Of a stretch of DNA of 64,000 nucleotides, positions 31,324 to 49,253 are shown piece after piece. The stretch is from a virus (Duplodnaviria; Heunggongvirae; Uroviricota; Caudoviricetes), in IMG/VR virus record IMGVR_UViG_3300046499_000850, one strand, 5' to 3'. The position numbers were made by a program, and so were the translations under genes. Each line of letters starts with the position of its first letter. Within the stretch, counting starts at the first letter, position 1. The notes beneath the pieces are model-generated. The model was given only the letters and a program-made list of their open reading frames with translations, was not told where the DNA came from and did no database searches.

Positions 31324-31358
31324 AACTAGCACCTCTTTCAGTTCTAATAGGGATAGTC

Positions 31359-33716
31359 GTGAGTTCAAATAACTATCAGATTTATATCAATCAGACCCTG
31401 CAGCTGGTGGAGACGATCGTCATCAAATCGTCTTACACCGCGCGTGCTCTTAACGAGTGGGTCGCAGGCGCCATGGCGGCCGGAGGTTATTTAGCCCCTG
31501 TCGATCCTGACCCCACCACCTGGAAATATTATCTCAATCTTGCTGGAGAGTACCATAGCATCGACGAAGTGATGACCGTCGTGTCCATGGATACCTTGGA
31601 AGAGATCGTATTCAACAAAGTCAACCTCGCGATCCACACGGCGACTGCTCGGGCTTATCAGTACGGTAGCAAACAGTACACCGATTTGGTGGCCCGCTTT
31701 CCAACCCAAGAACAACTGATCCTGGGTATTTTGTACCCGACCGATATCGAGCGCGCGATTGCGGCACAAGACGGGGACATCTTGGCATTCCCGCCGGGTC
31801 TGGTCGAGGAAAACGAATACCACCTCATCAGCAACCTGCAAAAGTGGATCTACCATTTCAAACAGCGCTGGCATGTGCCTGGGTTTGATTACACCGACGA
31901 GCTGTACAATGCCACGATGTTGGGGCTCATGTACCTGCTGTTGGTCCAAGCCTTGTTGACCTTGCGGTTAGCTGCATGTAACACCAACGAAGCGCACAGC
32001 TTTCACATCAGAGAATATCTGGCCAGCCACGGCTACTTGGACAAGTTCTTTGATGCAATGACCAAAAAGCAAGCGCTGCATTTCTACCGCAATATCGCGT
32101 ATATTCAGCGGCATGCGGGTAGAAATGCGACGCTGGAATCATTAACCGAGCATATCATGACCGACCGGTTCATTCCCCTCGCGGAATACACCATGAAGCA
32201 TGATGTTTCGGCGCAGACAGAGAACCTTTACCCCGAGGTGATCTTCCGCAAACGTCAACTCAATCTGGACATTATCCTGCCAGATGACAACCGCACCACT
32301 ATCAAAGAACTGCTCGACAAAGAAAAGCCGCTCGCGGTGGGTAACACCCTGGACTTGGATGAAGTTGAAACCCAAGTCAAAGAGTTGATGCAGAATTCGC
32401 CGTCCAATGTGGTGGCGACCAAGGTGCTCGAATCGTCGATGATCGATGAGACGAATAGCTCGCCGTGGATTTTGAGTGAGATCTTGTTTAACCACTGGCT
32501 CTATTTTAGTAGCCAAGACTTGTACACCGCGTATGTGAATGTGACTAACCCGAAAACCGGTGAAAAGATTCCGGTGACAGCGAAGGAAGCGTTCATTTTG
32601 GCGCTTTATGCTTTTGCGAAAACGGTCGGGGGGCACCTCGATACGATTCCGCTAGCGTATGCAAGTCGGGTACAACGGATTCCACGCGCCACGGTGGACG
32701 ACATCTATTCGATCGTTGACCATCAGTTACTGCCGCGTAGTGTGGCCGAGAAAGCCTTGTCGCAACAACCGGCCATCAAGCCGATGCTGTCGATCGATGC
32801 GTTCTGGAATACGGGGGTGGCAATCAATGCTGCGGTGCAGATGCAGCGTAACATGATCGCGGCGCGGGAACACCACGAAGGGCGGGCCATGGTGCAATCC
32901 ATGGTGACGCGGATTTATAGTGATTACATTCTGGCGCTCGAACCCGAAGGTACGCTCTACGATACGTGGCTGTCGGCGCGCAACATCGACTTGTCGCAAC
33001 TAAACCGGGCCGAGTTCGTCTTGCTGTTTGAAGACATCGTGGCCCAAGCCACGGGTGCGAGTCTGCATCCCGTGCAAACCATGAAGTCGCTGCAACAAGC
33101 GATGGTGGGGATGTTCGCCCAACTCTCGTCGTACGGTATCCAAGTTATCGCCGAGATCAATGATTCGACGATCCGCAAAACCGACTGGCCAGCCGTGCGG
33201 TTGGGAACGGTGACAGGGTCGATCCAGACTAACCCACAGAACCCCGATGGGGTGGTGGCAGTGGACCGCATCAGTGAATCGTGTTCGATGCGAGTCGAGG
33301 TGGACTTAAACCATCCGGGCGTTGACCCCGACGTGCACCAGTTTGGAACGCACCGCGTCGAAGTACAGTTGTCGATGAATGGGGATTTGCAAGCCCACCC
33401 GACCACGTACTTGTTCGATTCCCCAATCGGCAACCTCGGTATCACGAGCCCCGATCCGGAAGGCGTGACGATCCCGCGGGGTTGGGTGCCGTTTATCGGT
33501 ATCGAGTACTTCTTGAATTTGACGGCTGACCAAATCGGCTTGATCCAAGATCCGTACAACCCACCGGGCACGTTCACTCCACCGACCAAGATCCCGCTGT
33601 CGCAAATCGTGTTGATCACGGAACTGCCGGGCATTAACCTGACGGACGATGAACGTTCAGAACCGCTATCGCGTAGTGTGACGGAATTGGTACTCGGGAA
33701 AACTTACCCACAGTAA
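31359..33716 (+). CDS. virion structural protein (phiKZ gp128-like), 785 aa
   Basis: WKYYLNLAGEYH..D..M.V.S.DT.EEI.F motif; F.IREYLASH; synteny with the portal. Confidence 0.65.
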   Translation: MSSNNYQIYINQTLQLVETIVIKSSYTARALNEWVAGAMAAGGYLAPVDPDPTTWKYYLNLAGEYHSIDEVMTVVSMDTLEEIVFNKVNLAIHTATARAYQYGSKQYTDLVARFPTQEQLILGILYPTDIERAIAAQDGDILAFPPGLVEENEYHLISNLQKWIYHFKQRWHVPGFDYTDELYNATMLGLMYLLLVQALLTLRLAACNTNEAHSFHIREYLASHGYLDKFFDAMTKKQALHFYRNIAYIQRHAGRNATLESLTEHIMTDRFIPLAEYTMKHDVSAQTENLYPEVIFRKRQLNLDIILPDDNRTTIKELLDKEKPLAVGNTLDLDEVETQVKELMQNSPSNVVATKVLESSMIDETNSSPWILSEILFNHWLYFSSQDLYTAYVNVTNPKTGEKIPVTAKEAFILALYAFAKTVGGHLDTIPLAYASRVQRIPRATVDDIYSIVDHQLLPRSVAEKALSQQPAIKPMLSIDAFWNTGVAINAAVQMQRNMIAAREHHEGRAMVQSMVTRIYSDYILALEPEGTLYDTWLSARNIDLSQLNRAEFVLLFEDIVAQATGASLHPVQTMKSLQQAMVGMFAQLSSYGIQVIAEINDSTIRKTDWPAVRLGTVTGSIQTNPQNPDGVVAVDRISESCSMRVEVDLNHPGVDPDVHQFGTHRVEVQLSMNGDLQAHPTTYLFDSPIGNLGITSPDPEGVTIPRGWVPFIGIEYFLNLTADQIGLIQDPYNPPGTFTPPTKIPLSQIVLITELPGINLTDDERSEPLSRSVTELVLGKTYPQ

Positions 33717-33778
33717 ACATCATTATCTGGCGAGAGATGCTCGCGCATCTATTCTTTTAATTTTGGAGTAAATAAAAA

Positions 33779-34642
33779 ATGGCTGAGAAAACAACCAGGA
33801 CAGTTTACGGCATGTATTTACAGACGTGTGCCCATCTGGGCATTCCGTTCGTGCTGCAAAAGAACACCACGCTCAACGAACTGCTGAGCATCCAAGCTGA
33901 CCGTGTGCCGGACGCCAACGTGTACCCAACCCTGGGTTACCTGAGCCTGGGTAATGGCGGTTTGTCAGCCAGCTTGCTGGCGGATGGCAATCCGGTGATG
34001 ATTCCGAAGATCTTCCAAGCCACCAACGCTGCACCGTACAGCCCGATTCCGCTGATCCTGCGGGCGCTCGGCAACGACCTGACCCCGGACGAACGGAAGA
34101 AGTACGCGCTGCGTCGTCTGGAAACCCGTGGCGACACCACGTACATCGCGTACTACCTCAAGCGCGTCGACAAGACCAACCTCACCGCCGGTATGTTTTT
34201 AACCACCGTGGTAGATGGTGTGAAAAATACTGTTCCGTTCGTGCCCGATTCGTCGGTGTTGCACCCCGCACCGCCGGTCATCAGTAACCCAGGTGTGATC
34301 ACGGCCGACGGTTCCTACGTCAGCGCCTCGGCGCCACTCAATGTGGTGCTGGATGCCGTCGACACCGAAGAGCTGATGAATGTGTTTAACATCATCTACC
34401 AAAACCCGAACGCGGCAATCATCTCGGAACTGGCGTTGTGCTCGGGCTTGGACCTGACCGTGCAAGTCAACGACGCGGGTGGCAACACCTTCAACATGGC
34501 CGAAGCGATCGCGGTGCAAGTCAACGACTTGGTGAACATCGGCGCTCCGCTGCAATTTAACGCCGACGGCGTGAAGTTCAGCATGGACATCGGCGCCACG
34601 GAACCGCTCTACTCGAAAGACATGGTTCCCGTCGCCAACTAA
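33779..34642 (+). CDS. virion structural protein (probable tail/baseplate), 287 aa
   Basis: TTLNE...I...Y...G.GG and YIAYYLKR motifs typical of this phiKZ-like gene; GGAG RBS. Confidence 0.55.
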   Translation: MAEKTTRTVYGMYLQTCAHLGIPFVLQKNTTLNELLSIQADRVPDANVYPTLGYLSLGNGGLSASLLADGNPVMIPKIFQATNAAPYSPIPLILRALGNDLTPDERKKYALRRLETRGDTTYIAYYLKRVDKTNLTAGMFLTTVVDGVKNTVPFVPDSSVLHPAPPVISNPGVITADGSYVSASAPLNVVLDAVDTEELMNVFNIIYQNPNAAIISELALCSGLDLTVQVNDAGGNTFNMAEAIAVQVNDLVNIGAPLQFNADGVKFSMDIGATEPLYSKDMVPVAN

Positions 34643-34655
34643 ATAAGGTAACATC

Positions 34656-35243
34656 ATGCTCCATGTCCCTACAAACAGTAGGGATACATTCACCGTGTGC
34701 GGCACCGACCCAGGAACCCATAACCTGGGCTTGGGGGCACTACACGTGGATATGTATACCCTGAAAATTCGTTCATTCGAAGCCTACACGTTGGTTGCTA
34801 CAAAGCTGATGGATGATGAGGATCTGCTTGTAGCCAACCATGGGCATACCTACGCCCGGACCGATGCACACAAAGATGCGTTGGTGCGGGCGTTTCGTTA
34901 CTTCCAACCCTCGGCGATTGCCAGCGAAGACGCGTTCTTCAATCGTCGTACACCGGGCGCATACGCGCCGCTGTTGAAATCCATCCAAAGCATTCGGGAA
35001 GCGGTGATCGAGTACGACCCGTTCATGCCGTTCGTGTTGCTGGAACCCTCGGTCATCAAGGTCGGCGTGGGTGCGGTGAATTGGTCCAAGAAGAATGGTA
35101 CCAACAAATCGTCTGTGCTCGATGCTTTGCTGAGCAATGCGGAATTCAAAGTCCCTAGTCCTACGCCATTGTCGACACTCAGCGAGCACGCTATCGATAG
35201 CTTGGCGATCGCATACACGCGCTTAAAACAGTTGAGGTCATAA
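34656..35243 (+). CDS. ruvC: RuvC-like Holliday junction resolvase
   Basis: GTDPGT (D), ASEDAF (E), SEHAIDSLAIA (D) catalytic motifs. Confidence 0.85.
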   Translation: MLHVPTNSRDTFTVCGTDPGTHNLGLGALHVDMYTLKIRSFEAYTLVATKLMDDEDLLVANHGHTYARTDAHKDALVRAFRYFQPSAIASEDAFFNRRTPGAYAPLLKSIQSIREAVIEYDPFMPFVLLEPSVIKVGVGAVNWSKKNGTNKSSVLDALLSNAEFKVPSPTPLSTLSEHAIDSLAIAYTRLKQLRS

Positions 35244-35692
35244 TGTTCGAACTAGAAGCTATTGCAGCGATGAAAATGAAGTTGGGGATCTTCGTGCTGG
35301 CGTTGCTGGCGGCGTTGGTCCTGTATTTCAATTACCAACACATGCAGAAGTTGGTCGCGAAAGCCAACACCACCATCACTGAGCAACATACTGAGATCGT
35401 CTCGCAAGCCGATACAATCAAGACTGACGGCATCGTCAAGAAGATTGACGAGGACACCCAAGTCGCGTTGCAGAAGGATGAGAAGGCAGTCGCTGTCAAA
35501 CACGAAAGTATCCAACAAAAGGTCGTCGAGAAAGAACATGTTATTCAGCAACACTTCGAAGCGTTACCCGTGTCTCCTGAAAACCTCGCCGCCGAACAAG
35601 AGCAACTCTCCGAATCCCGCATCGATGCTTTGTGGGAAGCCTATTGCGCTGCTACTCCAGCGGCCGCTCAATGCCAACCCACAAAAGGATAA
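35243..35692 (+). CDS. i-spanin (Rz-like)
   Basis: Single N-terminal TM followed by a coiled-coil periplasmic region; next to a lipoprotein gene. Confidence 0.65.
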   Translation: MFELEAIAAMKMKLGIFVLALLAALVLYFNYQHMQKLVAKANTTITEQHTEIVSQADTIKTDGIVKKIDEDTQVALQKDEKAVAVKHESIQQKVVEKEHVIQQHFEALPVSPENLAAEQEQLSESRIDALWEAYCAATPAAAQCQPTKG

Positions 35693-35695
35693 ACC

Positions 35696-36133
35696 ATGAA
35701 GCACACCCTCGAAGCATTTCTCGACTACGTCCACCGGCTATTTCTGTTGTTCGGTTTAGTGTTGGTCGGCGCAGCAGCGGCTGGCTGCACCACCCCCGTC
35801 CCGACCGTCGTCGTCAAACACGTTGTGGTGGCACCGGCCGACAACCTGCTGGTTGATTGCGACGTGGCGGCGCCACCGGTGAAGCTCGACTACTTACGTA
35901 AAGTCGAGGTCGATCCGACCCCGCCGGATTTGAGCATCGGTAAGGAGCCGTATCCGTACACGGCGCGTTTCGTGCAAAGCGTGATGAAGGTCGCCCAAGA
36001 ACGGGAACGCCAGCTGACGGAACTCAACTTGAAACATTACAAGAACCTGGACGCGTGCAACAAACGTTTCCACCAGATTCGGGAATGGAAAGCGAAGAGC
36101 TTACTCGAACTGAATGCCAATAAAAAGGAATAA
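35696..36133 (+). CDS. o-spanin (Rz1-like lipoprotein)
   Basis: Hydrophobic signal, lipobox AAG-C, Pro-rich segment, additional Cys residues. Confidence 0.7.
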   Translation: MKHTLEAFLDYVHRLFLLFGLVLVGAAAAGCTTPVPTVVVKHVVVAPADNLLVDCDVAAPPVKLDYLRKVEVDPTPPDLSIGKEPYPYTARFVQSVMKVAQERERQLTELNLKHYKNLDACNKRFHQIREWKAKSLLELNANKKE

Positions 36134-36138
36134 AAATC

Positions 36139-36687
36139 ATGCGCGTCATTACCCATGTGCTCCGGAAGATCGACGACGAAAAACCGATCTCGCTGCAGGC
36201 GGCTACTTCGCCAGCTATCGCTGAGTTATTAAATAACTACAACGAGATGGCGTTGGTGGCCCGGGCAGGTGAAGACTACCGTTTGGTCGTTGCCACGGCC
36301 GAGATGTATGGTCAGGATTTCAAACGGCACCTGTGCAATCTGCCGTCGGTGGACCTGCACCGTATGTTGGATCGTTACCTGTCCCACTTCGCCCACTGCG
36401 AGAAAGGCAACGCGACGCGCGAACGTACGCAAGTGGACACTGAGGATGACGAGCCGGAAGACACCGAAGACAGTTCACACCTCGAAACCCCAGCCCAAAA
36501 GTCCAAGCGGGAATTCAACCACTGGCTGATCAAATGCGCCATCGTGTTTGCCATCATCGTGGTGTTCATCGCGGGTGGGGTGATGGTGGCCATCATGGGT
36601 CACAACCACAGCGCCGACGCTGGAATTTTCAAGACGATCCTAGACAATACTGTCGAGGTCCTCAAAATCCTCTTTACCATCAAGTAG
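36139..36687 (+). CDS. membrane protein with two C-terminal TM helices (holin/antiholin-like)
   Basis: WLIKCAIVFAIIVVFIAGGVMVAIMG and a second hydrophobic helix; adjacent to the spanins. Confidence 0.5.
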   Translation: MRVITHVLRKIDDEKPISLQAATSPAIAELLNNYNEMALVARAGEDYRLVVATAEMYGQDFKRHLCNLPSVDLHRMLDRYLSHFAHCEKGNATRERTQVDTEDDEPEDTEDSSHLETPAQKSKREFNHWLIKCAIVFAIIVVFIAGGVMVAIMGHNHSADAGIFKTILDNTVEVLKILFTIK

Positions 36688-36691
36688 ACTT

Positions 36692-37384
36692 ATGCGCCGC
36701 TTACGCTCCAACGCCTTCACTGGCAAGCTCGCGACCGAAGCCGATGATACCAGCGGAAAACTCACCGCTGAGATCGAGTACATGTTCTACGCCCGCGTAA
36801 CTTCCCCACAGACGCTCTTAAACGCTCTGAGCGTCGAGATCCAAGAGCAGTGGGGGGTGTGGCAGGACAAGACCGATAAAAACGCCGGTAGCGGCTCTAA
36901 TCGCGTCCGCAAGATTATTCACTACCCGATCATCAACGGCCAGTTCGACAACATCAACAAAACCGAACAAATCGTGCACACCACCAAGCTGAAACGCTCG
37001 GATGGATCGTCACTTGAAGTATCGGTTGAATCTACCGAAGACGCCCTGCGGGCCTTCCAAGTCCTGGCCGAATCCGGCATGATCAAACACCGCTACCGGT
37101 TCCCGATCGAGGGCACGGAACTGGTGTGGGAAGTCGACATGTTTGTTGAACCTGGTCAATCGATGCATTCGACCAAGTATATTGACTGGGCCAAGGTCGA
37201 TTTGGAGGTACCTTCCAAAGACTTCCCGGTACCGGTGCTGCCAGAAGGCTTCATGGATGCGTTCAACAGCAAGATCGCTGAACCGAACGATATCCAACGC
37301 CAAGTCATCGAACAGATGCAAGGGTTCATTAGCTTACCGAATCCGTACGTCAAAGAAGTGTACCCGGACGTGTTGAAGAAATAA
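36692..37384 (+). CDS. CYTH / triphosphate-tunnel metalloenzyme-like protein
   Basis: EIEY (ExExK-like), RVRK, TTKL..LEVSVE, IKHRY, WEVDMF, VDLEV. Confidence 0.55.
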   Translation: MRRLRSNAFTGKLATEADDTSGKLTAEIEYMFYARVTSPQTLLNALSVEIQEQWGVWQDKTDKNAGSGSNRVRKIIHYPIINGQFDNINKTEQIVHTTKLKRSDGSSLEVSVESTEDALRAFQVLAESGMIKHRYRFPIEGTELVWEVDMFVEPGQSMHSTKYIDWAKVDLEVPSKDFPVPVLPEGFMDAFNSKIAEPNDIQRQVIEQMQGFISLPNPYVKEVYPDVLKK

Positions 37385-37392
37385 ACCCTGTT

Positions 37393-37421
37393 TCCCTGCC
37401 CCCATTCGGGGGTGGGGAAAT
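37393..37421 (+). terminator. hairpin ending the structural/lysis operon
   Basis: TTCCCTGCCCC-ATTCG-GGGGTGGGGAA. Confidence 0.5.
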
Positions 37422-37510
37422 ATGGCGCTAAAAAATTTCAAGTACATATAACAGTGGTGAATAGGAAAGCGAATGCATCCCTAACCCCTACTAACTTTAA
37501 GGAGAGCACT

Positions 37511-37864
37511 ATGTTTGATCCGGCAAAATTCACCATGCCAAAAACCCACCCACACAAAGAAGCCATCATGCCCATGATGCGCTTCTCGGGCGAGTTCGTA
37601 GGAATCACCTTGCGACCCCATGAAAATGGGCGCCTCAAGGTGATGCGTGAGGGCGCATGGATCGGCACTATCGTCCCCCGCGAGTTGGAGGATGGTAGTG
37701 AAGGCCATTCGTACGAGGAAGAGTACATGCTACTCTCCCACCCGGATAGTGACCACGAGTACCGTGGTACTGCCGGTGACATGGCCCGGATAGTCTCCAT
37801 GTTGCAACAGCGTGGTGGCGATTGGGACAAAGTCGCCGACGGCTACTATCCTTTCGCGGGTTGA
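37511..37864 (+). CDS. hypothetical protein (117 aa)
   Basis: AAGGAG RBS before ATG 37511. Confidence 0.7.
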   Translation: MFDPAKFTMPKTHPHKEAIMPMMRFSGEFVGITLRPHENGRLKVMREGAWIGTIVPRELEDGSEGHSYEEEYMLLSHPDSDHEYRGTAGDMARIVSMLQQRGGDWDKVADGYYPFAG

Positions 37865-37928
37865 TGGGCAAGGGCCTTGAATGGCCCTCATCCATACATC
37901 CACCAACAATTAACAATAAGGAGTGATC

Positions 37929-38201
37929 ATGAATAACGCTAATGCACGGTTTTCGGAAGCAGAAGTGCAAGCTGCAATCAAACAGCAGCTGACTTCTAGC
38001 TACATGATTTTGGACGAGCGTCAGTTCAAGAGTGATGAGCAAAAGCTCGGTAAGGTTACGGCGGTATTGTGCGATCGTCATCGTGAGTGGATCGACTATG
38101 TTGACCACAAGCTCGATGAAATCGTGGGTCGTATTCCTGCTAATACGCCGAAGAGCAAGCATTTCATTGGCCGCAGTATGTATTACACTGTTAGTTATTA
38201 A
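37929..38201 (+). CDS. hypothetical protein (90 aa)
   Basis: A/C-rich leader + AAGGAG. Confidence 0.7.
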   Translation: MNNANARFSEAEVQAAIKQQLTSSYMILDERQFKSDEQKLGKVTAVLCDRHREWIDYVDHKLDEIVGRIPANTPKSKHFIGRSMYYTVSY

Positions 38202-38213
38202 AAGGAGGGCAAC

Positions 38214-38537
38214 ATGCAAGAACTGATTGATGCATTGAAGTCGCTGGACGCAGATAATGAAGTCATCGCCTTCAACCAAGGTGGGCGTGAATTCATGACC
38301 GACACGGATTACTTCACGGCATTGGGAGAAGAAGCCCAAGCGAAGGTCAACCGCGTTTTGGAACTGTGCGATAATCTCTTGGTTAACGCTGGCGGGTATC
38401 CGAACTACACAGCATGGTTGGAGGCAGTCACCTTCGGTCAGGCACAAGGATACAAGTTCGATGTTCAAACTGGCGAAGAGGATTCTTGCGTCCTCATCAC
38501 ACCTGTGACGCAGATCGCTTTTGACTGCTACTGCTAA
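38214..38537 (+). CDS. hypothetical acidic protein (107 aa)
   Basis: AAGGAGG RBS. Confidence 0.75.
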   Translation: MQELIDALKSLDADNEVIAFNQGGREFMTDTDYFTALGEEAQAKVNRVLELCDNLLVNAGGYPNYTAWLEAVTFGQAQGYKFDVQTGEEDSCVLITPVTQIAFDCYC

Positions 38538-38540
38538 AGT

Positions 38541-38580
38541 AATCTCCTAGCCTGCGTCAATGCAGGCTAGTGGATGCGCT
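38541..38580 (+). repeat. CTAGC-hairpin intergenic element, copy 1
   Basis: AATCTC-CTAGCCTGC-GTCAAT-GCAGGCTAG-TGGATGCGCT. Confidence 0.85.
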
Positions 38581-38617
38581 TTATTTCTCCCACAATCAAC
38601 AACAGAAAGGATGTACC

Positions 38618-38911
38618 ATGGCTACTCCCCTCATCGACCTGATCGTCGGTAAACTGCAACTGATCGGTGGTGCCGCCATCGACGACCATGCAGCACACAA
38701 AGAAATGCTGTTCGATCGTCTCAGCAAAATCAGTGCGGTTGGCGTGATACGTGGCAAGATCGTCGGTTTCATTCCCGACGCCACGCAAGACCAATGCGTC
38801 AACGAACTGTACATCGGCGAAGAAGGCATGGTCCACATCGGTCGCAGCGCCGTCGGCATCATCGCTCCGGGCCAGTGCAGCACCCACATTAGCAACATCA
38901 CCCGTATCTAA
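38618..38911 (+). CDS. early-region paralog A (97 aa; LYIGEEG family)
   Basis: AAAGGA RBS; IDDH...LYIGEEGMVHIGR shared with 39262 and 42871. Confidence 0.75.
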   Translation: MATPLIDLIVGKLQLIGGAAIDDHAAHKEMLFDRLSKISAVGVIRGKIVGFIPDATQDQCVNELYIGEEGMVHIGRSAVGIIAPGQCSTHISNITRI

Positions 38912-38932
38912 TCTTTTTATAAGGAGAGCATC

Positions 38933-39178
38933 ATGAAAGTCTTTTCCAAAGTCATCTACGTCGCCTGGATTATCGCCGCTTTCGCCGCTCTGTTCTTCTC
39001 GGACGAGCTGAAGCTGCAACTGGAGCACACGGCCTGGGTGATCGTGCAAGCCATCGCTTGCCTGCAGATCCTGTTCGGCTGCATCATCAACCCGATCATC
39101 AAGCACTACCTGCAACACCAACGTGATGTCGCGTTCCGCAAGGTCGCCGATGTGATGCTGAAAAGCATCGTGAAATAA
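38933..39178 (+). CDS. small two-TM membrane protein (81 aa)
   Basis: AAGGAG RBS; two hydrophobic helices. Confidence 0.75.
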   Translation: MKVFSKVIYVAWIIAAFAALFFSDELKLQLEHTAWVIVQAIACLQILFGCIINPIIKHYLQHQRDVAFRKVADVMLKSIVK

Positions 39179-39185
39179 ATAGAGC

Positions 39186-39224
39186 AATCTCCTAGCTCGC
39201 TGGATGCGGGCTAGTGGATGTACT
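39186..39224 (+). repeat. CTAGC-hairpin intergenic element, copy 2
   Basis: AATCTC-CTAGCTCGC-TGGAT-GCGGGCTAG-TGGATGTACT. Confidence 0.85.
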
Positions 39225-39261
39225 TTATTCTTCCCTAATAATCAACAACAAGGAGTTTATC

Positions 39262-39618
39262 ATGATCAAGACCTTCGAAGCCATCCAAGCCGCCATCATC
39301 GCCAACAACGGCATGGTGATCGACGACCATCGTAGCGGCCGCGAGCCAGCTGAACAACTGCGCAAGGTGCACGGCATCGCCAAGTACGCCAAGGACACCG
39401 TGTACCTGTGCAGCGCTGACGAAACCCCGTACTTCTGCCTGAACGGCATGTATGTGGATGAAGAGGGCAAACCACACCTGTCGCGTTGGTCGGTCGGCGG
39501 CGTGATCGAGACACGCAATCACGGCGGCCTGATGGAAGGCATCCGCGCGTACAACGATCCGAAGAATTGGATACCTGGCTTCACCATCACCGAAGTCCGC
39601 GCCGTCGTTCTGTTTTAA
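39262..39618 (+). CDS. early-region paralog B (118 aa)
   Basis: AAGGAG RBS; TFEAI.AAI.ANNG.VIDDH...MYVDEEGKPHLSR...NHGGL. Confidence 0.8.
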   Translation: MIKTFEAIQAAIIANNGMVIDDHRSGREPAEQLRKVHGIAKYAKDTVYLCSADETPYFCLNGMYVDEEGKPHLSRWSVGGVIETRNHGGLMEGIRAYNDPKNWIPGFTITEVRAVVLF

Positions 39619-39629
39619 ACATTCAAAGT

Positions 39630-39671
39630 AATCTCCTAGCTACCCTAGAATGGGTGGCTAGTGGATGCGCT
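39630..39671 (+). repeat. CTAGC-hairpin intergenic element, copy 3
   Basis: AATCTC-CTAGCTACCC-TAGAAT-GGGTGGCTAG-TGGATGCGCT. Confidence 0.85.
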
Positions 39672-39703
39672 TTGCATCAACTAACCCTAAAAGGAGTTTT
39701 GTC

Positions 39704-40372
39704 ATGAAAAAGTTTGTTTTCCTGATGCTGCTGGCTTTCGCTTCGTTCTTCAACTCGGCCCAGGCCACCGTGATCGGCGATACCTCCGACCACAACGCTG
39801 TGCAGAATAGCTGCTACCCGTTCGCCTGCGCTATCGGTGCCGGCAGCTATCAGCAGCTGTACTCGTACAAGGATTTCGATGGCAAGATGAACATCGGTTC
39901 CTTGATGTTCGACGCGAACTACAGCGGCGACTCGATCTACAGCCCGAACGTGAGCGATGGCGTGTTCACCGTCACGCTGTCGACGGTGGATAAGCTGGCC
40001 TTCCCGACCAGCCTGAACCACTTCAGCGGTCAGTCGAACGTCCAAGTGGTGTACCAAGGCAAACTGCCGGCCATGAAAGACTGGTACAGCCTGCAGATCA
40101 ACCTGCAAGACACCTACTTCTACGATCCGGCGCTGGAGCAGAATCTGGTGATGCAGGTGGACTGGACGGATGCCAACGTGGCCTACAATACGCCGACCTT
40201 CGTCAACGGTACCGGCACCTGGGGCCGTCTGGATTCGATCAACGTGCCGTCGTTCAACCATGACTACGGCCTGGTGACGCACTTCTCGGATGTGCCGGAA
40301 CCGGGTTCGCTGGCGCTGATCGGTCTGGGGATGTTCGGTCTGTTCGGTCTGCGTCGTCGTTCGGCGAAGTAA
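39704..40372 (+). CDS. PEP-CTERM sorting-domain surface protein (222 aa)
   Basis: Signal peptide MKKFVFLMLLAFASFFNSAQA; C-terminal VPEPGSLALIGLGMFGLFGLRRRSAK is a canonical PEP-CTERM (PEP + TM + basic tail). Confidence 0.92.
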   Translation: MKKFVFLMLLAFASFFNSAQATVIGDTSDHNAVQNSCYPFACAIGAGSYQQLYSYKDFDGKMNIGSLMFDANYSGDSIYSPNVSDGVFTVTLSTVDKLAFPTSLNHFSGQSNVQVVYQGKLPAMKDWYSLQINLQDTYFYDPALEQNLVMQVDWTDANVAYNTPTFVNGTGTWGRLDSINVPSFNHDYGLVTHFSDVPEPGSLALIGLGMFGLFGLRRRSAK

Positions 40373-40384
40373 TCTCAGCAGAGT

Positions 40385-40425
40385 AATCGTCCTAGCTCGT
40401 TTCATCGCGGGCTAGGGGATGCGCT
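40385..40425 (+). repeat. CTAGC-hairpin intergenic element, copy 4
   Basis: AATCGTC-CTAGCTCG...CGGGCTAG-GGGATGCGCT. Confidence 0.8.
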
Positions 40426-40509
40426 TCTGCACCTTTTCCGGTGAGAAAATACTTGGCATCATCATTAAGTGAGTTTCGCAAAAACTCATTCATAAACCCA
40501 GGAGAACCC

Positions 40510-42159
40510 ATGAAACAACAGCAACCACAGGCAGCAGCCCCGTTCACGTTGAACTCGGACTTCTCGAAAATCAAACTGACAGGGCAAGCTGCCATGGAGA
40601 ACATCCACGCTGACCTCGCCATCTTCGACCTGATGGAGGATGGAGTGCGTCGCACAGTGACGCAAGTGGAACAAGCGTTGGTTCCGCTTGGCTACAACCG
40701 CCGTCATGTCAACAACCGCATGGTCAATCTGCTGTACAAGAAAAAGACCTTCGTGGCGGACGGCAACGTGCAGGGTGCGGCGGCGTACGTGATTAAGAAA
40801 GGCGCCAAGCGCCCGATCGAACGCACGGCTGCCGTAGAGACGGCACCCATCGACAGCCAGATCAAGATCCCGCCAGCAGCAGAGCAACGGTTCAAACCGG
40901 TGGCTGCTGTCAAACCCTCTCCTCTGGTACCGACGGTAGCTGCACCGACGGTAGAGGAACTTTCGGTTACGCCGACGACTTACGTGGTCGAGCAGACGGA
41001 CCCGGTGCAAGTGGCAATCTGGAAAACCATGCACGACCACGAGTCGTACACGGTTCAGGATCTAGCGACGCTGCTGGACCATATCTCGCTGCGCGCCATC
41101 GAATCGACGATGAAGATCATGAACGACAAAGGCATGTTCGAGGTGACTCCTGCACAGGGCAGAAACCCGGCGATCTACACGCTGATCGAAGGTGTGCCTA
41201 TGCCGGAAGGTCTGCCGGCGTACCACCCGCGTCTGGGCATGCGCAAGTCGACGGAGAACAACGTCGAACCTGTGGCCGAGAAACCGGTGGAGCAAGCTTC
41301 GGGTGCGATCCTGCCCGCTTACCAAGAAATCTTGGATGCTACCAGCCACCTGAAGACCTTCACGATTCCGGATGCGGCTCGCCTCGTGCCGCATGCACCG
41401 CCGCGCTCGGTTGAAGGTCGGGTTCGCCGTATGGCCGAAGAAGGTCTGCTGCTGGTGTCCCGTCCAGAGGGCAGCAAGTCCAATGTGTACGAAGCAGCAT
41501 CGCGCAAAGCCAAGGACGACCAAAAGGTCAAAGACACGATGGCCCAGCTCGACGCCAGGCTCGCGCAGTATCAAACCAACGCTACTTCCTCGACGACGCT
41601 CAAGCAAGTCGAGACCCAGAAGGACGCCCCTCAAGCCCAGCTCCCGCTGACCGACGCTGCCTCCCCGGCGGATCAGTCGCAACCCTACACCCCGGGCTGG
41701 GAAAACAAGCTCGACGAATTGGCACAAGTGGGTACCAACCGCGAAGCCGAACTCGCCGAGCAAGCGCGCCAGGAGGAACTGGCCGCCCGTGAAGCCGCTG
41801 CGGAAGAAGAATGCCGCCGCGCTGAAGCTGCCGCCCAAGCCGCTCAGGCTGCTAAGCCGGACGTCAAGCATTTCAAAGATCCGGCCCCGGTGAAAGAAAT
41901 CAAACCGGGTGTGTTTGTTCTGGATGAAACCCCGCTGGTGCAAGTTGGTGGAATCTTCGTCAAGGGCAAGCGCTTTAGCTTCAAAGAAGCCGTCGAGTTG
42001 CTGAAAGAACTCGAAGAGGCTGGCTTCGGTGAAGAGATCGAGGACTTCCAGAACGATAATCGTAAGTATCTGAAGCTGCAACTCATGATTGCCGATCTGC
42101 CGTTTACCCCGATCGAGGCACAAAACCTCACCCTGCAACTCAAGAAAGAACTGAGCTAA
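40510..42159 (+). CDS. multi winged-helix DNA-binding protein (549 aa)
   Basis: Up to three wHTH-like segments (IWKTM..ESYTVQDLATLL..SLRAIESTMKIM.DKGMFEV..GRNPAIYTL; ILDAT..TFTIPDAARLV..RSVEGRVRRMAEEGLLLV..SNVYEA) joined by P/A/E-rich linkers. Confidence 0.6.
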   Translation: MKQQQPQAAAPFTLNSDFSKIKLTGQAAMENIHADLAIFDLMEDGVRRTVTQVEQALVPLGYNRRHVNNRMVNLLYKKKTFVADGNVQGAAAYVIKKGAKRPIERTAAVETAPIDSQIKIPPAAEQRFKPVAAVKPSPLVPTVAAPTVEELSVTPTTYVVEQTDPVQVAIWKTMHDHESYTVQDLATLLDHISLRAIESTMKIMNDKGMFEVTPAQGRNPAIYTLIEGVPMPEGLPAYHPRLGMRKSTENNVEPVAEKPVEQASGAILPAYQEILDATSHLKTFTIPDAARLVPHAPPRSVEGRVRRMAEEGLLLVSRPEGSKSNVYEAASRKAKDDQKVKDTMAQLDARLAQYQTNATSSTTLKQVETQKDAPQAQLPLTDAASPADQSQPYTPGWENKLDELAQVGTNREAELAEQARQEELAAREAAAEEECRRAEAAAQAAQAAKPDVKHFKDPAPVKEIKPGVFVLDETPLVQVGGIFVKGKRFSFKEAVELLKELEEAGFGEEIEDFQNDNRKYLKLQLMIADLPFTPIEAQNLTLQLKKELS

Positions 42160-42275
42160 TACTCGCACGACGGAGTTGCCTTCGGGTGGCTCCGTTGTAT
42201 GAGGTTATATCAGAGAGACTTCGGTTTCTCTCATGTATCCTTCTACCCAATAATCAACAACAAGGAGTTATTATC

Positions 42276-42602
42276 ATGCAAACCACCAATCCTTCGCAAG
42301 CTGACATCGATGACATTTTGGCTGCCATCCGCATGGGCGCTGTTGAAGCGCTGACGCTCGAACCCTTGATCTGGGTGGAGATCCTGATCTGTCAAGCGGA
42401 AGCAAAGATGGAACAAGCAACCGGCGCGGTCAAACATATCTGGGCCATGGCCAAGCAATACGGCGACGACCACCCGGTCACTGTTCAAGCGCGCCAATTC
42501 GCCACGCAACTGAATAACGAAGCCGTGCAGATTAACACGGTGGCACGTAAGTTGCATGAAGCCAACAAAGCATTTCTGCAACAAAACGTGACTTTTTATT
42601 AA
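42276..42602 (+). CDS. hypothetical helical protein (108 aa)
   Basis: AATCAACAACAAGGAG leader. Confidence 0.75.
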   Translation: MQTTNPSQADIDDILAAIRMGAVEALTLEPLIWVEILICQAEAKMEQATGAVKHIWAMAKQYGDDHPVTVQARQFATQLNNEAVQINTVARKLHEANKAFLQQNVTFY

Positions 42603-42626
42603 TAATCAACAACAAGGAGATTTACC

Positions 42627-42785
42627 ATGCGTCACTATGTCACCAACGAATTCAACAACTCGGCCATCGCTAAAGGTATCGCTGCTGAAAAACGCGAAGC
42701 CACCGACGGCAAGATTAACTCCGCTGTCGCCACTGTTCTGTTCATCGCGGTGGTCTGCATTTTCAAACACGCTATCGGCGGTTAA
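42627..42785 (+). CDS. small single-TM protein (52 aa), missed by the ORF track
   Basis: Manual translation MRHYVTNEFNNSAIAKGIAAEKREATDGKINSAVATVLFIAVVCIFKHAIGG*; AATCAACAACAAGGAG leader. Confidence 0.75.
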   Translation: MRHYVTNEFNNSAIAKGIAAEKREATDGKINSAVATVLFIAVVCIFKHAIGG

Positions 42786-42870
42786 ACCGCTGAATCGGGA
42801 TAGAGCTAAAACTCTATCCCATCGATCTTTTTTTAGTAGCTTTTTATCAACTACTCAAGGAGGTGTTGCC

Positions 42871-43242
42871 ATGCCCGCTACATTTGAACAAATCGTCGAT
42901 GCTATTAACGCTAACGAAGGTCAAGTGATGGACGACTGTCTTCAGGCGTTGCCTGCGGAACGTCGGAAAAGCAAAGCTGGTGCGATCGCCCGTTATGGTG
43001 CGGCCGTGGTGCACCTGACCGTCAACGACCGTAGTCCATGCACGACGATGGGGGTGATGTACCTAGGTGAGGATGGTATCGCCCACATCAGCAGGAACAT
43101 GGTCGGTCCAGTACTCTGTCCAGCTAACCATGGCGGTCTGCAAAAAGCCGTGGCACACCACAACCTAGAAAACGCCAGAGGGGCAGTCGGCCAAGGGCGT
43201 TCTTGGGATACGTTAGCGATTGAACAGCTCACTTACCCTTAA
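42871..43242 (+). CDS. early-region paralog C (123 aa; start moved from 42637)
   Basis: AAGGAGG RBS; TFEQIVDAINANEGQVMDD...MYLGEDGIAHISR...NHGGL. Confidence 0.8.
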   Translation: MPATFEQIVDAINANEGQVMDDCLQALPAERRKSKAGAIARYGAAVVHLTVNDRSPCTTMGVMYLGEDGIAHISRNMVGPVLCPANHGGLQKAVAHHNLENARGAVGQGRSWDTLAIEQLTYP

Positions 43243-43253
43243 AGGTAAAAGCC

Positions 43254-43610
43254 ATGCAAGTTTCCTTGAAGGTAATGGCTAGGGCTGTGGTAGGCGGTCT
43301 GCTTGTGAGTGGGTCACTTACCATGCTGGTATTTGGTCCGAGTTTTTTCGTGATCGTCAGTTACCATTGGTTCTTGACAGAAGCAAAACGGAACGAGATG
43401 TTCACTTGGTATCCACCAGGGTTGTTGAACTACGGAATTTTCTCGTCACGTTCACTCGACGCGCTAGCCATGCTGCTCATCGGCTTGTTTCTGGCAATCC
43501 CAGTGTGGCGCACTTACCGTTACGCCAAACGGACAGTCACCGCCGTTGCCGGACTGGTCGGGCTTTGGACGCTTTACGTGTTTAACGCTGTGTTTTCCCA
43601 TTTATTCTAG
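43254..43610 (+). CDS. multi-TM membrane protein (118 aa)
   Basis: Three hydrophobic segments; AAGG RBS. Confidence 0.7.
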   Translation: MQVSLKVMARAVVGGLLVSGSLTMLVFGPSFFVIVSYHWFLTEAKRNEMFTWYPPGLLNYGIFSSRSLDALAMLLIGLFLAIPVWRTYRYAKRTVTAVAGLVGLWTLYVFNAVFSHLF

Positions 43611-43624
43611 TCAAGAAGACTTAG

Positions 43625-43662
43625 GGGATAGGGCGCTTGCCCTATCCCGTATGCCTTTTTTA
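43625..43662 (+). terminator. hairpin + TATGCC + T-tract
   Basis: GGGATAGGGC-GCTT-GCCCTATCCC-G-TATGCCTTTTTT. Confidence 0.75.
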
Positions 43663-43695
43663 TTCCGTTACCATATCAAAAGAAAGGAGCCTAAC

Positions 43696-44115
43696 ATGGC
43701 CACCAAAGCAGGCAAGGTCCACTTCAAGGATATCAAGCGCGGTAAGACGTTTTACCTCGTGCGCGCTGATTTCCCGATCATCAGCAGCATGCTGGTCGGT
43801 GAAGGTGAAGTTGAACAGATCCGACGTATCCGCGTCACGAGTCGTCCGTTCTGGCGCAAGCTGTCAGCGACACCAGCCTTCAATTACGTTGACGATCACT
43901 GTAACGAAGGTTGGGTGAACCTCGCTGAGATGGAACTCAACCATAGCAGCTTCGAAGTACAGCACAACTGTCCGTACATGGTGGTGCTCGCCAACAAGGC
44001 GGCTATGCAACGTTTCGTCAAGACGTTCGAGCAACGCAAACCCACCAAGGCAGAAGCGGCCCGTACGATGACACGTGAAGCCATGCTCAACGCTAAGCAA
44101 CGTGGTTTGTCATAA
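43696..44115 (+). CDS. hypothetical basic protein (139 aa)
   Basis: AAGGAG RBS before ATG 43696. Confidence 0.75.
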   Translation: MATKAGKVHFKDIKRGKTFYLVRADFPIISSMLVGEGEVEQIRRIRVTSRPFWRKLSATPAFNYVDDHCNEGWVNLAEMELNHSSFEVQHNCPYMVVLANKAAMQRFVKTFEQRKPTKAEAARTMTREAMLNAKQRGLS

Positions 44116-44138
44116 TCAACAACAACTAGGAGAACATC

Positions 44139-44561
44139 ATGAGTAACAAAACCATTCCTTTCGTTCCGAGCGTTATGCTGATCAACGGTCACGCGCTGAA
44201 TGCGGATGAGCTGCATGCGGTTTCGATTGCGCTGCGCCGTGCGTTTGTCGAACAGTCGGTCAATATCGAAAACGTGCAAAGCGTTCCGGAAAATGTCAGC
44301 GACAAGATCAACCGGTTCAACGAGCGGCGCGCCCTCTTCAACCTGATTGAACGAGTCGATGGTGTAATACCTACTATCCCGTTGGTCAATGCCGGCGGCT
44401 ACGAGTGCGGCATCGAACTCAACTCATACTTCCTCAATTCCGAGGACGTGAGTCGTATTCGGAATGCCTTGATCTGGATGCGGGATAATTGGCTTCTGGA
44501 CCATGAAGCGATCCGCAAGGTCACCATCGGCGTTATCGAGCGCATCGAAGGCAAATCTTAA
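44139..44561 (+). CDS. hypothetical protein with internal duplication (140 aa)
   Basis: LINGHALNADELHAVSIAL and IELNSYFLNSEDVSRIRNAL repeats; AGGAG RBS. Confidence 0.7.
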   Translation: MSNKTIPFVPSVMLINGHALNADELHAVSIALRRAFVEQSVNIENVQSVPENVSDKINRFNERRALFNLIERVDGVIPTIPLVNAGGYECGIELNSYFLNSEDVSRIRNALIWMRDNWLLDHEAIRKVTIGVIERIEGKS

Positions 44562-44581
44562 TTAACAAGAAAGGAAGTAAC

Positions 44582-45370
44582 GTGAACAATCAACAACAAA
44601 TAACACCTCTCGGTCATCAAAACAGCTATACCGATCTTTTTGGTGTGCTAGTGATGGAATTGCTGGGAAGTCAACAAATCTCACCTGAACTTCTGAAGAT
44701 GAAGCTGCTGGATTACTTCCAAAAGAAGTTTCCTCAACAACACCATGTTTCCTGGGTCGCCAACATCACCTTCGACTCGTTCATGGAAGGTCGTATGAAT
44801 CTTCGCCAGTTCAACGACATCTTTGACGCGTTGGGCGCCACATTAACCTTCATGGTGGCGGTGAAAGACGTCGAAGAACCGTCGAAGAATGAAGGTGCAG
44901 ATTCCCCGACAGCGTTCGCTTATCCGGCGATCTGGGATCAGCCGGTCGATGATCTCGACATCACGGCGCGCGCAGTCAACTGCCTAAAGCATGCAGCTGA
45001 ACCGGCCGTCGAGTACATCGGTCAACTCGTAGCGATGCACCCGAATGCGCTCCTGAAAATCGTGAATGTCGGCCACTCGACGGCGCGTAACATCGAGATC
45101 GCCTTGGCCAACCACGGTCTGAAACTCGGTACAGACATCGGTAAATGGGTGTCGCCGAAACAGCGCGAGATGGTTGAATGGGATATCTATAAGCTGGGTT
45201 TGGACCCCCGGACCACTGTGGTGCTGCGGCAGGCAGGTATCGTGAAAGTCGGCGATCTCCTCTCGAAGACTGAGGAAGAGATCGCCGGGATCGAATTTCT
45301 CGGACGTGAAAGGTTTTACGAGATCCGCGAGCTGCTCAGCAATAAAGGCTTGAAACTGCGTAAACCGTAA
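44582..45370 (+). CDS. protein with two tandem RNA polymerase alpha C-terminal domain (alpha-CTD)-like domains
   Basis: PVDDLDITARAVNCLK..VEYIGQLV..LLKIVNVGHSTARNIEIALANHGLKLG..W and LGLDPRTTVVLRQAGIVKVGDLL..EEIAGIEFLGRERFYEIRELL..GLKL match RpoA CTD (PVDDLELTVRSANCLK...). Confidence 0.85.
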   Translation: MNNQQQITPLGHQNSYTDLFGVLVMELLGSQQISPELLKMKLLDYFQKKFPQQHHVSWVANITFDSFMEGRMNLRQFNDIFDALGATLTFMVAVKDVEEPSKNEGADSPTAFAYPAIWDQPVDDLDITARAVNCLKHAAEPAVEYIGQLVAMHPNALLKIVNVGHSTARNIEIALANHGLKLGTDIGKWVSPKQREMVEWDIYKLGLDPRTTVVLRQAGIVKVGDLLSKTEEEIAGIEFLGRERFYEIRELLSNKGLKLRKP

Positions 45371-45454
45371 GTCATCTCTATCGACGTCTTTCGCAATCAG
45401 GAGGGCGTCGATGGGGAATGTCTCCCTACAATCAAGAACAGAAGGAGTGTCATC

Positions 45455-45541
45455 ATGAGCACTACCGCACAGGAATTTGCCGCTTGGGCGAAAAGCGCAG
45501 CTGCCGATTTGAAAGACCCGTATCCCGTCAGCAAGAAATAA
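45455..45541 (+). CDS. 28 aa microprotein
   Basis: Manual translation MSTTAQEFAAWAKSAAADLKDPYPVSKK*; A/C leader + GAAGGAG RBS like neighbouring genes. Confidence 0.55.
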   Translation: MSTTAQEFAAWAKSAAADLKDPYPVSKK

Positions 45542-45551
45542 CTACTAAAAG

Positions 45552-45953
45552 ATGAACACTACCCAAGACTTAACCATCTATTCTACCGACAACGCTATAA
45601 CGTGTATCTTCAAAGTCATGTACAGTAAGGGATGGATGACCCGTTTAGAAATCCTTGAAGCGCTCAAATCGTGCCACTACAAGGACACGACGCTGCGCTG
45701 TGCTTTGGCTGGTTCATCCACGACATTGATTGAACGCCATGAACCTCCGCAGCCGAAGAAGGTGGGAAGGAATATCCTCAACTACCGATGGGTGGAAGGG
45801 GCGGTACCGCCCGCGCCAGCGAACCGTGGCCGTAAAAAACAAGTACTGGAAAAGCCAGTCGCTTCACCGACACATACCGAACTATGCGCAGACAGTATTG
45901 ATCGTTTGCTCCACGGCCGGCGCATGAAATCTTGGCCTAGTAAGTATGGTTAA
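45552..45953 (+). CDS. putative winged-helix DNA-binding protein (133 aa)
   Basis: IFKVMYSKGWMTRLEILEAL..YKDTTLRCAL..IER..YRW pattern. Confidence 0.5.
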   Translation: MNTTQDLTIYSTDNAITCIFKVMYSKGWMTRLEILEALKSCHYKDTTLRCALAGSSTTLIERHEPPQPKKVGRNILNYRWVEGAVPPAPANRGRKKQVLEKPVASPTHTELCADSIDRLLHGRRMKSWPSKYG

Positions 45954-45992
45954 ATAGCTGTTTTTTTATAATCAACAACAAGGAGATTTACC

Positions 45993-46391
45993 ATGGCTGG
46001 ATCGAACTACCATACTGTCAAAGACGGTAATCTGTTCTTTGACTTCAAAGGCAATCGCATCATCATGTCAGCAGAAGCAAGTAACTGGCGTGATTCCAAA
46101 TCGGAAAAGACGCCCGTCTACCGTTTCGTGGCGGCGGTCATGAAAAATTTGCTCGCAGGCGACACGCACGGCATGCGGGAAGAATTCCTCAGTATCGACT
46201 TCGACATCGCGAAACTCCTCAAGGACGATCTCGAACGGTCGAGCATGGACGGCAACTACAAAGGCAAGATCCAGATGAGCGAGGAGTACAAACTCAAGTT
46301 CACCCGAATCGCTGACGAGTTCCGTAAGATGGTTGCCACGCTCGACGCGATCGAGTATCACGATGTTCCCACCCCACCCCGTGAAGATTGA
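45993..46391 (+). CDS. hypothetical protein (132 aa)
   Basis: AATCAACAACAAGGAG leader. Confidence 0.75.
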   Translation: MAGSNYHTVKDGNLFFDFKGNRIIMSAEASNWRDSKSEKTPVYRFVAAVMKNLLAGDTHGMREEFLSIDFDIAKLLKDDLERSSMDGNYKGKIQMSEEYKLKFTRIADEFRKMVATLDAIEYHDVPTPPRED

Positions 46392-46402
46392 AAGGAATCA
46401 TC

Positions 46403-46621
46403 ATGAGCGTTACCACGACTGCGGAGCTTACTGTCGACCAGATGCGCAAAGACATTGACACGGCATTCAAATCCACACATCGCGCATTCACTGAAATTCT
46501 GGTAGATCGCGTGTGGGGAGCGGATGAATTCACTGATGAGTTTAAACAGAAGCTCGAAAATGCTCATCGCACGTTGATGGAACTGCGACGTGATATGGGT
46601 GAACCTCGTTTCCTCGATTAA
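46403..46621 (+). CDS. hypothetical protein (72 aa)
   Basis: AAAGGA RBS before ATG 46403. Confidence 0.7.
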   Translation: MSVTTTAELTVDQMRKDIDTAFKSTHRAFTEILVDRVWGADEFTDEFKQKLENAHRTLMELRRDMGEPRFLD

Positions 46622-46670
46622 GCGGCATAGCTCCCTCTACCCTTCAGGGGTAGAGGGAGTCTATTACGTG
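46622..46670. terminator. bidirectional palindromic terminator
   Basis: GCGGCATAG-CTCCCTCTACCC-TTCAG-GGGTAGAGGGAG between convergent genes. Confidence 0.75.
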
Positions 46671-46672
46671 CT

Positions 46673-47392: not shown

Positions 47393-47394
47393 GG

Positions 47395-48001: not shown

Positions 48002-48085
48002 GATGAAACCTCTCTTGAGTTAAGTTAGTACTGGAGAGAAACACATCCTCCATAACAATGGTAAATATTTCTCTCCAGACACTAC

Positions 48086-49237: not shown

Positions 49238-49253
49238 ACTGGAAGTAGTTAAC

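Follow-up and report, generated by a model that had tools for sequence, protein, structure and literature searches.

Gram-negative bacteria sort PEP-CTERM proteins with exosortase, in what is seen as a chromosomal system tied to biofilms and flocs whose substrates and mechanism are still poorly characterised, and PEP-CTERM proteins are reportedly found in genomes that encode an exosortase. Classical phage morons, which we consider together with surface-modifying accessory genes of phages such as those for superinfection-exclusion lipoproteins and membrane proteins, have been described in temperate phages and are expressed from the prophage. A distant relative of the protein analysed here is PepA, described in PMC12642866, with reference to Gao et al. 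2018, as a flocculation-associated PEP-CTERM protein of Zoogloea resiniphila. Here we analyse a gene for a PEP-CTERM protein in a 64,000-nucleotide Caudoviricetes record (IMG/VR IMGVR_UViG_3300046499_000850; this whole stretch of DNA is hereafter called the window). The gene is no fresh pick-up from a host: it belongs to a phage-specific clade, kept in one slot of at least three diverged jumbo-phage lineages. We consider it fairly likely that it encodes a phage-adapted, host-derived exosortase substrate that works on the infected cell's envelope or in its exopolysaccharide matrix.

A PEP-CTERM protein encoded by a phage gene

The gene is an open reading frame (ORF) of 222 codons at 39704–40372 on the forward strand, stop codon included, and is called from the frame and its translation, matches to the PEP-CTERM models PF07589 and TIGR02595, and the ratio of non-synonymous to synonymous substitution rates (dN/dS). 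Its product, P0001, ends in a PEP-CTERM sorting tail, VPEPGSLALIGLGMFGLFGLRRRSAK (residues 197–222; 40292–40369, forward strand), assigned from both models, hydropathy and conservation. The tail runs in the order VPEP-GSLALIGLGMFGLFGL-RRR, with a hydrophobic helix (Kyte–Doolittle 2.03 at residues 202–216) between the motif and the arginine cluster. Both models match at the extreme C terminus: Pfam PF07589 scores 34.6 bits at residues 196–219 against a gathering score of 20.7, and NCBIfam TIGR02595 scores 25.6 bits at residues 197–219 of 222 against a cut-off of 16. The opposite end carries a signal peptide, MKKFVFLMLLAFASFFNSAQA (residues 1–21; 39704–39766, forward strand), assigned from hydropathy, the structural model and homologue conservation. 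By inspection and a hydropathy scan it consists of MKK, a 13-residue hydrophobic stretch, FVFLMLLAFASFF, and AQA followed by T, with cleavage predicted after AQA. Kyte–Doolittle values of about 2.0 extend across residues 4–18, an AlphaFold2 model places a helix at residues 2–13, and homologues keep the N-terminal pattern of MK+, hydrophobic stretch and A-x-A. P0001 combines a hydropathy-defined signal peptide with a C-terminal model match, a P-E-P motif, a helix and a basic cluster, as expected of a PEP-CTERM protein.

Between signal peptide and tail lies a β-jelly-roll domain of 175 residues (22–196; 39767–40291, forward strand), strongly acidic and 41% Ser, Thr, Asn, Asp or Tyr, that is delimited from the AlphaFold2 model, fold matches and conserved columns. 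The model, built on an 80-sequence alignment, has a predicted local distance difference test score (pLDDT) of 86.7 and a predicted template-modelling score (pTM) of 0.83, and comprises an N-terminal helix, an all-β sandwich and a C-terminal helix. A conserved cysteine pair in the domain (C37/C42, in C-x-P-F-x-C) would fit an extracytoplasmic protein. A sequence-profile search of the PDB gave no significant match for P0001. Fold comparison returned PHR domains, domains of carbohydrate esterases that resemble carbohydrate-binding modules (CBMs), the Cwp84 lectin-like domain, CBM32-type modules and phage tail-tip and baseplate domains at Z 7–9.3, where Z 7–9 is the usual best score for models without a clear relative and signifies a common jelly roll. 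Fold matches in AFDB, with template-modelling scores of 0.5–0.62, are to proteins with PEP-CTERM, T9SS or IPTL-CTERM sorting tags. The original prediction, made from the letters alone, had placed the frame at these coordinates and described a signal peptide, a β-type domain of about 170 residues rich in S/T/N/D/Y, and a PEP-CTERM tail; each part of this description is borne out, the tail by the TIGR02595 score. As a separate lead, rank 27 (score 0.89) of an ESM Atlas feature search with P0001 is a cluster of 106 proteins, mostly viral (Uroviricota) and 223 residues long, that have no Pfam family in common; they might be viral members of this jelly-roll family that have no tail.

The reading frame is preceded by a Shine–Dalgarno sequence, AAGGAG, read directly from the DNA at 39691–39696 on the forward strand, 7 nt 5′ of the ATG. 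A leader containing AAGGAG is found again 5′ of neighbouring phage genes (family D1), and a longer frame from 39665 offers a less likely start. Codons end strongly in G or C, where the original prediction had noted C: the G+C content at third codon positions (GC3) is 0.82. The phage's major capsid gene has 0.83, and the PEP-CTERM gene stands at the top end of a continuous range among phage genes. As the value equals that of the capsid gene, we read the bias as phage high-expression codon usage and not as a foreign signature.

The gene resides in phiKZ-like jumbo phages

Scans against PHROG identify in the window a phiKZ-type major head protein (18645–20852; phrog_3231, E 9e-164) and a 1,076-residue virion protein (phrog_3004, E 3e-194), together with DnaB-like and further helicases, an SbcC-like nuclease, a spanin pair and tail-fibre-like proteins encoded at 48086–49159 and 54584–55819. 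The capsid protein has matches in 245 deposited jumbo-phage records; the best come from Burkholderia phage FLC9, at 39% identity, and from Ralstonia phages RP12/RP31, at 35%, with PhiPA3-type phages next. A 98% identical PEP-CTERM protein, P0002, is encoded on two contigs, L001 and L002, one of 237 kb from Logan and one of 272 kb from JGI; both match the window at 99.5% identity across 15.8 kb with unchanged gene order. Moreover, 36500–42500 is spanned without a joint by contigs from three rhizosphere-metagenome runs, two of which may be the window's source; among the data sets listed for the gene and the region, none is of RNA. These matches, with contigs longer than 200 kb, indicate that the window derives from a phiKZ-like jumbo phage of rhizosphere metagenomes and not from host DNA. 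Since synteny holds in three assemblies, no joint is seen and phage hairpin elements stand on both sides of the gene, host contamination or chimerism is very unlikely, and the original prediction of a phage-encoded gene stands. To our knowledge phiKZ-like phages are strictly lytic, and no integrase family was found among the ORFs of the window scanned with PHROG; the phage is therefore probably lytic, and the protein would act in lytic infection, not as a lysogenic-conversion factor.

A phage-specific clade of an uncatalogued family

An exhaustive HMMER search with a limit of E ≤ 1e-3 gave 358 cluster representatives; nearly all of them are 210–250 residues long and match end to end (most over about residues 5–220); a word-index protein search had recovered only the 98% allele. 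Upstream of the tail the family carries the motifs C-x-P-F-G-C, Y-Q-Q-x-Y, F-x-Y-D-P and G-L-x-T-x-F, and the conserved columns of the 80-sequence alignment are P39, F40, Y49, Q50, Q51, Y53, F138, Y140, P142, G189, L190, T192 and F194. P0001 shares the end-to-end homology and the motifs in the form C..PF.C, YQQ.Y, F.YDP and GL.T.F. No Pfam or NCBIfam model covers the jelly-roll domain (P0001 and ten relatives were scanned with NCBIfam), and this family of PEP-CTERM proteins of about 215–250 residues appears to be uncatalogued, a distant cousin of PepA.

Homologues occupy the same slot in other jumbo phages. P0005 (36% identity) is encoded there in L016, L017 and L018, where the flanking core genes are 74–87% identical to those of the window, and P0004 (43%) in the more diverged relatives L012 and L013 (44–47% GC), preceded by a 45% identical homologue of the 230-residue-protein gene that borders the slot and followed by a homologue of the 549-residue-protein gene on its other side. 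A further homologue, P0003 (42%), lies on a 2-kb contig directly 3′ of a small gene for an RNA polymerase α C-terminal domain protein, a type of gene that the window has too (44582–45370), and is probably phage-borne. On the bacterial side, P0006 and P0153 (about 33–35%) are encoded on a 63% GC contig, L020, with GT2, GT4, HAD and MFS-acyltransferase genes, and P0155 on a contig that has an asparagine-synthase gene close by. A maximum-likelihood tree of 148 family members, obtained by a quick search with midpoint rooting and with genomic context checked for a minority of rows, groups the phage-context proteins in one clade (Shimodaira–Hasegawa-like approximate likelihood ratio test, SH-aLRT, 97) whose sister is P0006/P0153/P0154 (SH-aLRT 95).

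The distribution of the family among phages is patchy. It is absent from three related phage genomes of 271, 272 and 310 kb; a tblastn search of 50,697 deposited phage records with P0001 gave no match even at E 1, and megablast of window positions 30000–50000 against deposited phage records likewise gave none. In IMG/VR the only copy of the family is of the L016 type. Nine IMG/VR contigs of 8–67 kb (L080–L088) bear PEP-CTERM-like tails on ORFs with unrelated N-terminal parts.

Selection on the gene and its tag

Across a seven-sequence alignment of phage and sister proteins, V197, P198, E199 and P200 are invariant, as are the cysteine pair C37/C42 and the arginine pair of the tail, in sequences that are only 31–42% identical overall; in the 80-sequence alignment the motif is at least 90% conserved. 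The proteins of the phage lineages have diverged to 35–43% identity, compared with 74–87% for neighbouring core proteins. Between the window and L001 the gene has accumulated 16 substitutions, 12 of them synonymous (dS 0.083, dN 0.008, dN/dS 0.09). The invariant V-P-E-P and the low dN/dS together argue that purifying selection maintains both the gene and its tag. Because a plain membrane anchor would not need V-P-E-P, its invariance is also, in our view, the strongest computational argument that an exosortase still reads the tag.

Nucleotide differences from L001 and L002 are unevenly spread: they reach 2.4% in the gene (39734–40138), fall to zero in the 2.3 kb upstream, are few downstream and average 0.47% over the region, with a second cluster at 36462–37147. 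This mosaic probably arose by an allele swap through recombination among co-circulating phages. A diversity-generating mechanism was considered for the cluster in the gene and set aside, as the 12 synonymous changes among 16 point to recombination of a diverged allele in preference to targeted mutagenesis.

A hypervariable island of hairpin-delimited cassettes

The PEP-CTERM gene is the last of seven small genes in a hypervariable accessory island (37385–40509, forward strand), delimited by synteny with 11 related loci and with L012, L013 and L016, and bordered by conserved genes for proteins of 230 (36692–37384) and 549 residues (40510–42159). Nine related IMG/VR loci were recovered through a conserved 785-residue protein, and among the related loci the roughly 3 kb between the two border genes differ between phages, with the genes on either side conserved.

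Three-tier hairpins stand on both sides of the PEP-CTERM gene, at 39624–39674 on its 5′ side (−30.6 kcal/mol, z −4.1) and at 40378–40430 on its 3′ side (−30.2 kcal/mol, z −3.8), both on the forward strand, and two more copies lie at 38535–38583 and 39178–39229. All were located by pattern search and RNA folding. The pattern (CCTAGC...GCTAG-GGATG) occurs four times, at 38546, 39191, 39635 and 40391, where none is expected by chance, in agreement with the original prediction of identical flanking phage elements. The complete element of about 50 nt reads AAAGTAATCT-CCTAGC-(variable stem-loop)-GCTAG-TGGATGCGCTTT; all four copies fold in three tiers (−24 to −31 kcal/mol, z −3.8 to −5.5), and their inner stems vary by compensatory changes. 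The four hairpins enclose three single-gene cassettes, of which the PEP-CTERM gene is the last. The same hairpin lies about 300 bp 5′ of the homologous gene in the diverged contigs L012 (3065–3100) and L014 (169–204), conserved in a relative whose 230-residue flanking protein is only about 45% identical, and simpler CCTAGC hairpins follow the 230-residue-protein gene in L004, L006 and L007. The hairpin might end transcription (for the copy 5′ of the gene, that of the preceding cassette), mark a site of RNA processing or serve in recombination of cassettes. The gene thus stands among regulatory signals native to the phage lineage. A promoter scan returned one weak σ70-like site (39622–39651), with fewer sites in the region than in shuffled sequence; phiKZ-type promoters are outside the scope of the tool.

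Other features of the neighbourhood include the likely spanin pair, about 4 kb 5′ of the PEP-CTERM gene (35243–35692 and 35696–36133; Rz-like phrog_89 and phrog_456); the L001 homologue of a gene of this pair gives a faint LysC Pfam match. Three paralogous small genes (33–38% identity) lie in or just past the island, at 38618–38911, 39262–39618 and 42637–43242; the second matches phrog_35911, homologues of the set occur in L005, L012 and L016, and the island appears to have grown by duplication of small genes. RNA polymerase α C-terminal domain (PF03118) proteins are encoded near the island both in the window (44582–45370) and in L016 (14553–15629). Between the core genes for proteins of 288 and 195 residues, L016 carries a gene resembling GIY-YIG/NUMOD3 homing endonucleases (4483–5193), also found in L018; the window has no such gene at this junction.

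A model for the protein and its alternatives

From the gene, its architecture and its history in phages we infer export, processing, a surface location and a benefit as follows. The bacterial family of PEP-CTERM proteins of about 215–250 residues would have supplied the gene in one capture by an ancestor of this phiKZ-like group, after which some lineages would have retained it in the single hypervariable slot. On infection it would be transcribed as a separate cassette set off by the hairpins, with translation from the strong ribosome-binding site; given a codon usage like that of the capsid gene, the protein would probably be abundant. Sec would then export the protein and the C-terminal helix would hold it, whereupon the host exosortase would read V-P-E-P, cut off the tail and deliver the protein to the outer envelope or into the exopolysaccharide matrix, where its acidic lectin- or CBM-like jelly roll might bind or coat a surface glycan. 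The phage would gain from an altered surface of the infected cell, through blocked adsorption of more phages, a loosened or altered matrix, or a decoy for exosortase; these roles of exclusion, matrix remodelling and decoy saturation are guesses. A bolder form of the proposal, which we put forward only tentatively, is that a virulent phiKZ-like lineage has domesticated a PEP-CTERM protein and feeds it to the host exosortase during lytic infection, either re-coating the infected cell and its matrix or acting as a decoy that blocks sorting of the host's own floc and matrix proteins.

The enzyme for such processing would come from the host. PHROG scans of the window's larger ORFs and of the ORFs round the gene named no exosortase, although no search of the window with an exosortase model was made, and a search with PF09721 found nothing in three records of related phages, of which two are complete genomes from the group of related metagenomic genomes of about 271–272 kb with terminal repeats. 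As no exosortase occurs in the related phage records searched, any processing enzyme must be the host's. The original prediction that the phage uses a host sorting pathway is partly supported: its main elements hold, a genuine PEP-CTERM protein, encoded by a phage, with no exosortase in the related phage records searched, with the refinement that the gene is no fresh pick-up.

Several observations weigh against an exosortase substrate of this kind. An exosortase might conceivably be encoded elsewhere in the window's own phage genome, and the host is presumed to encode one. Burkholderia and Ralstonia, the hosts of the nearest isolated phages, are not known to be rich in PEP-CTERM proteins. A full-length family member was found in only 1 of 401 sampled Burkholderiales genomes, an undercount, as seven candidates per genome were scored. 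Several close relatives of the phage thrive without the gene, which is dispensable to that extent, and glycan binding by the jelly roll is plausible as a guess from generic fold matches.

As to a host or donor, the family members of the one Burkholderiales genome that has them, G348 (93 and 71 bits), are ordinary members and not sister to the phage clade. Matches of the tail pattern in bacterial genomes were set aside as a donor clue, since among the matches listed almost all are tail-only, in unrelated PEP-CTERM proteins (of Massilia, Rhodoferax, Accumulibacter and others); five such genomes, Massilia, Accumulibacter and Rubrivivax among them, gave 3–22 tail matches each and no full-length relative. 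The bacterial sister contig L020 was found alongside phage L016 in two data sets, a lead to the host of L016. Contig pieces X2 and X3, from the same rhizosphere runs, match only 32 nt coding for the tail (40292–40324) with 2–3 mismatches, and therefore indicate other PEP-CTERM genes with similar tail codons in the same communities.

Could the tail serve simply as a membrane anchor? An exosortase-independent protein, tethered to the inner membrane without cleavage, with its jelly roll in the periplasm and a role akin to that of periplasmic or inner-membrane proteins for exclusion or lysis timing in other phages, is in our judgement unlikely. A signal peptide, a C-terminal hydrophobic helix and basic stop-transfer residues suffice for tethering, the related phage genomes have no exosortase match, and the spanin pair (35243–36133) about 4 kb upstream places envelope-acting genes nearby, but two other genes and the variable island separate the spanins from the PEP-CTERM gene. 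V-P-E-P is not needed by a plain anchor and yet is invariant at 31–42% identity, and homology to bacterial PEP-CTERM proteins spans the whole protein and not the tail alone.

A place in the virion, with the jelly roll as a glycan-binding tail or baseplate decoration, is highly improbable. A wide fold search does place the tail tip of Bxb1 (Z 9.3) and the baseplate of phi812 (Z 9.0) among its best matches, and the window encodes tail-fibre-like proteins elsewhere, but such scores are in the range expected of a common β-sandwich, the sequence relatives are all PEP-CTERM proteins, the gene sits among small accessory genes outside a structural module, and a cleavable signal peptide with a C-terminal anchor is a misfit for virion assembly in the cytoplasm. 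We give still less credence to an artefact of mis-joined host DNA, or to a recent passenger from a host without a role for the phage. PEP-CTERM genes are typically chromosomal, this one is missing from several related phages, and its 2.4% nucleotide divergence exceeds that of its flanks; against this, the assemblies agree without a joint, the phage's own hairpins stand on both sides, codon usage is phage-like, purifying selection is strong, and a phage-specific clade occupies the same slot in three diverged lineages. We retain, as the reading we prefer, a host-derived exosortase substrate adapted by the phage.

Comparison with known systems

If this reading is true, phages use the exosortase route to alter the surface or matrix of infected cells, and exosortase sorting becomes a pathway that phages actively exploit. 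The protein would be a natural substrate, compact and highly expressed, on which to study exosortase recognition, and the host of an uncultured rhizosphere jumbo phage would be narrowed to exosortase-bearing bacteria; because the PEP-CTERM tag is so specific, it would be a sequence-only host-range marker for uncultured phages. Full-text searches of a literature library turned up no account of phage-encoded PEP-CTERM proteins; the one related find was a virus-like Dehalococcoides element for which a PEP-CTERM domain is mentioned in passing.

P0001 resembles bacterial substrates of exosortase (XrtA/EpsH) in its signal peptide, P-E-P motif, helix and arginine cluster, in passing both curated cut-offs, and in full-length homology to hundreds of proteins of about 215–250 residues, two of which, with context checked, adjoin asparagine-synthase or glycosyltransferase genes. 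It differs in being encoded by a jumbo phage, in an accessory island and between phage hairpins, within a phage-specific clade whose lineage has yielded no exosortase. PepA (NCBIfam NF033554) is the best-scoring full-length NCBIfam model for P0001 and for all ten relatives tested; it is similar in size and shares the design of signal peptide, β-domain and tail, and in several relatives the alignment extends past the tail (for example, residues 62–248 of P0007 and 51–219 of P0003). By contrast, P0001 scores 34.1 bits over residues 156–220 only and its relatives 28–48, against an equivalog cut-off of 80. P0001 is therefore a remote relative of PepA, neither an orthologue nor a member of NF033554.

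Like the phage morons of Hendrix's concept, the gene is a single unit, present or absent among relatives, placed between conserved genes with stem-loops on either side, and its predicted envelope-targeted product is not needed for virion production. Unlike morons, it is carried by a phiKZ-like, probably strictly lytic phage, the hairpins beside it belong to a repeated element of the phage itself, and a σ70-type scan did not demonstrate a dedicated promoter. Among isolated phages, the phiKZ-like phages of Burkholderiales, FLC9 and RP12/RP31, have major capsid proteins 35–39% identical to that of the window across 95–98% of its length, but lack the PEP-CTERM gene by tblastn of the 50,697 phage records. 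PEP-CTERM substrates themselves are known; what is new is their setting, a phage-specific clade that keeps to one accessory slot in phiKZ-like jumbo phages.

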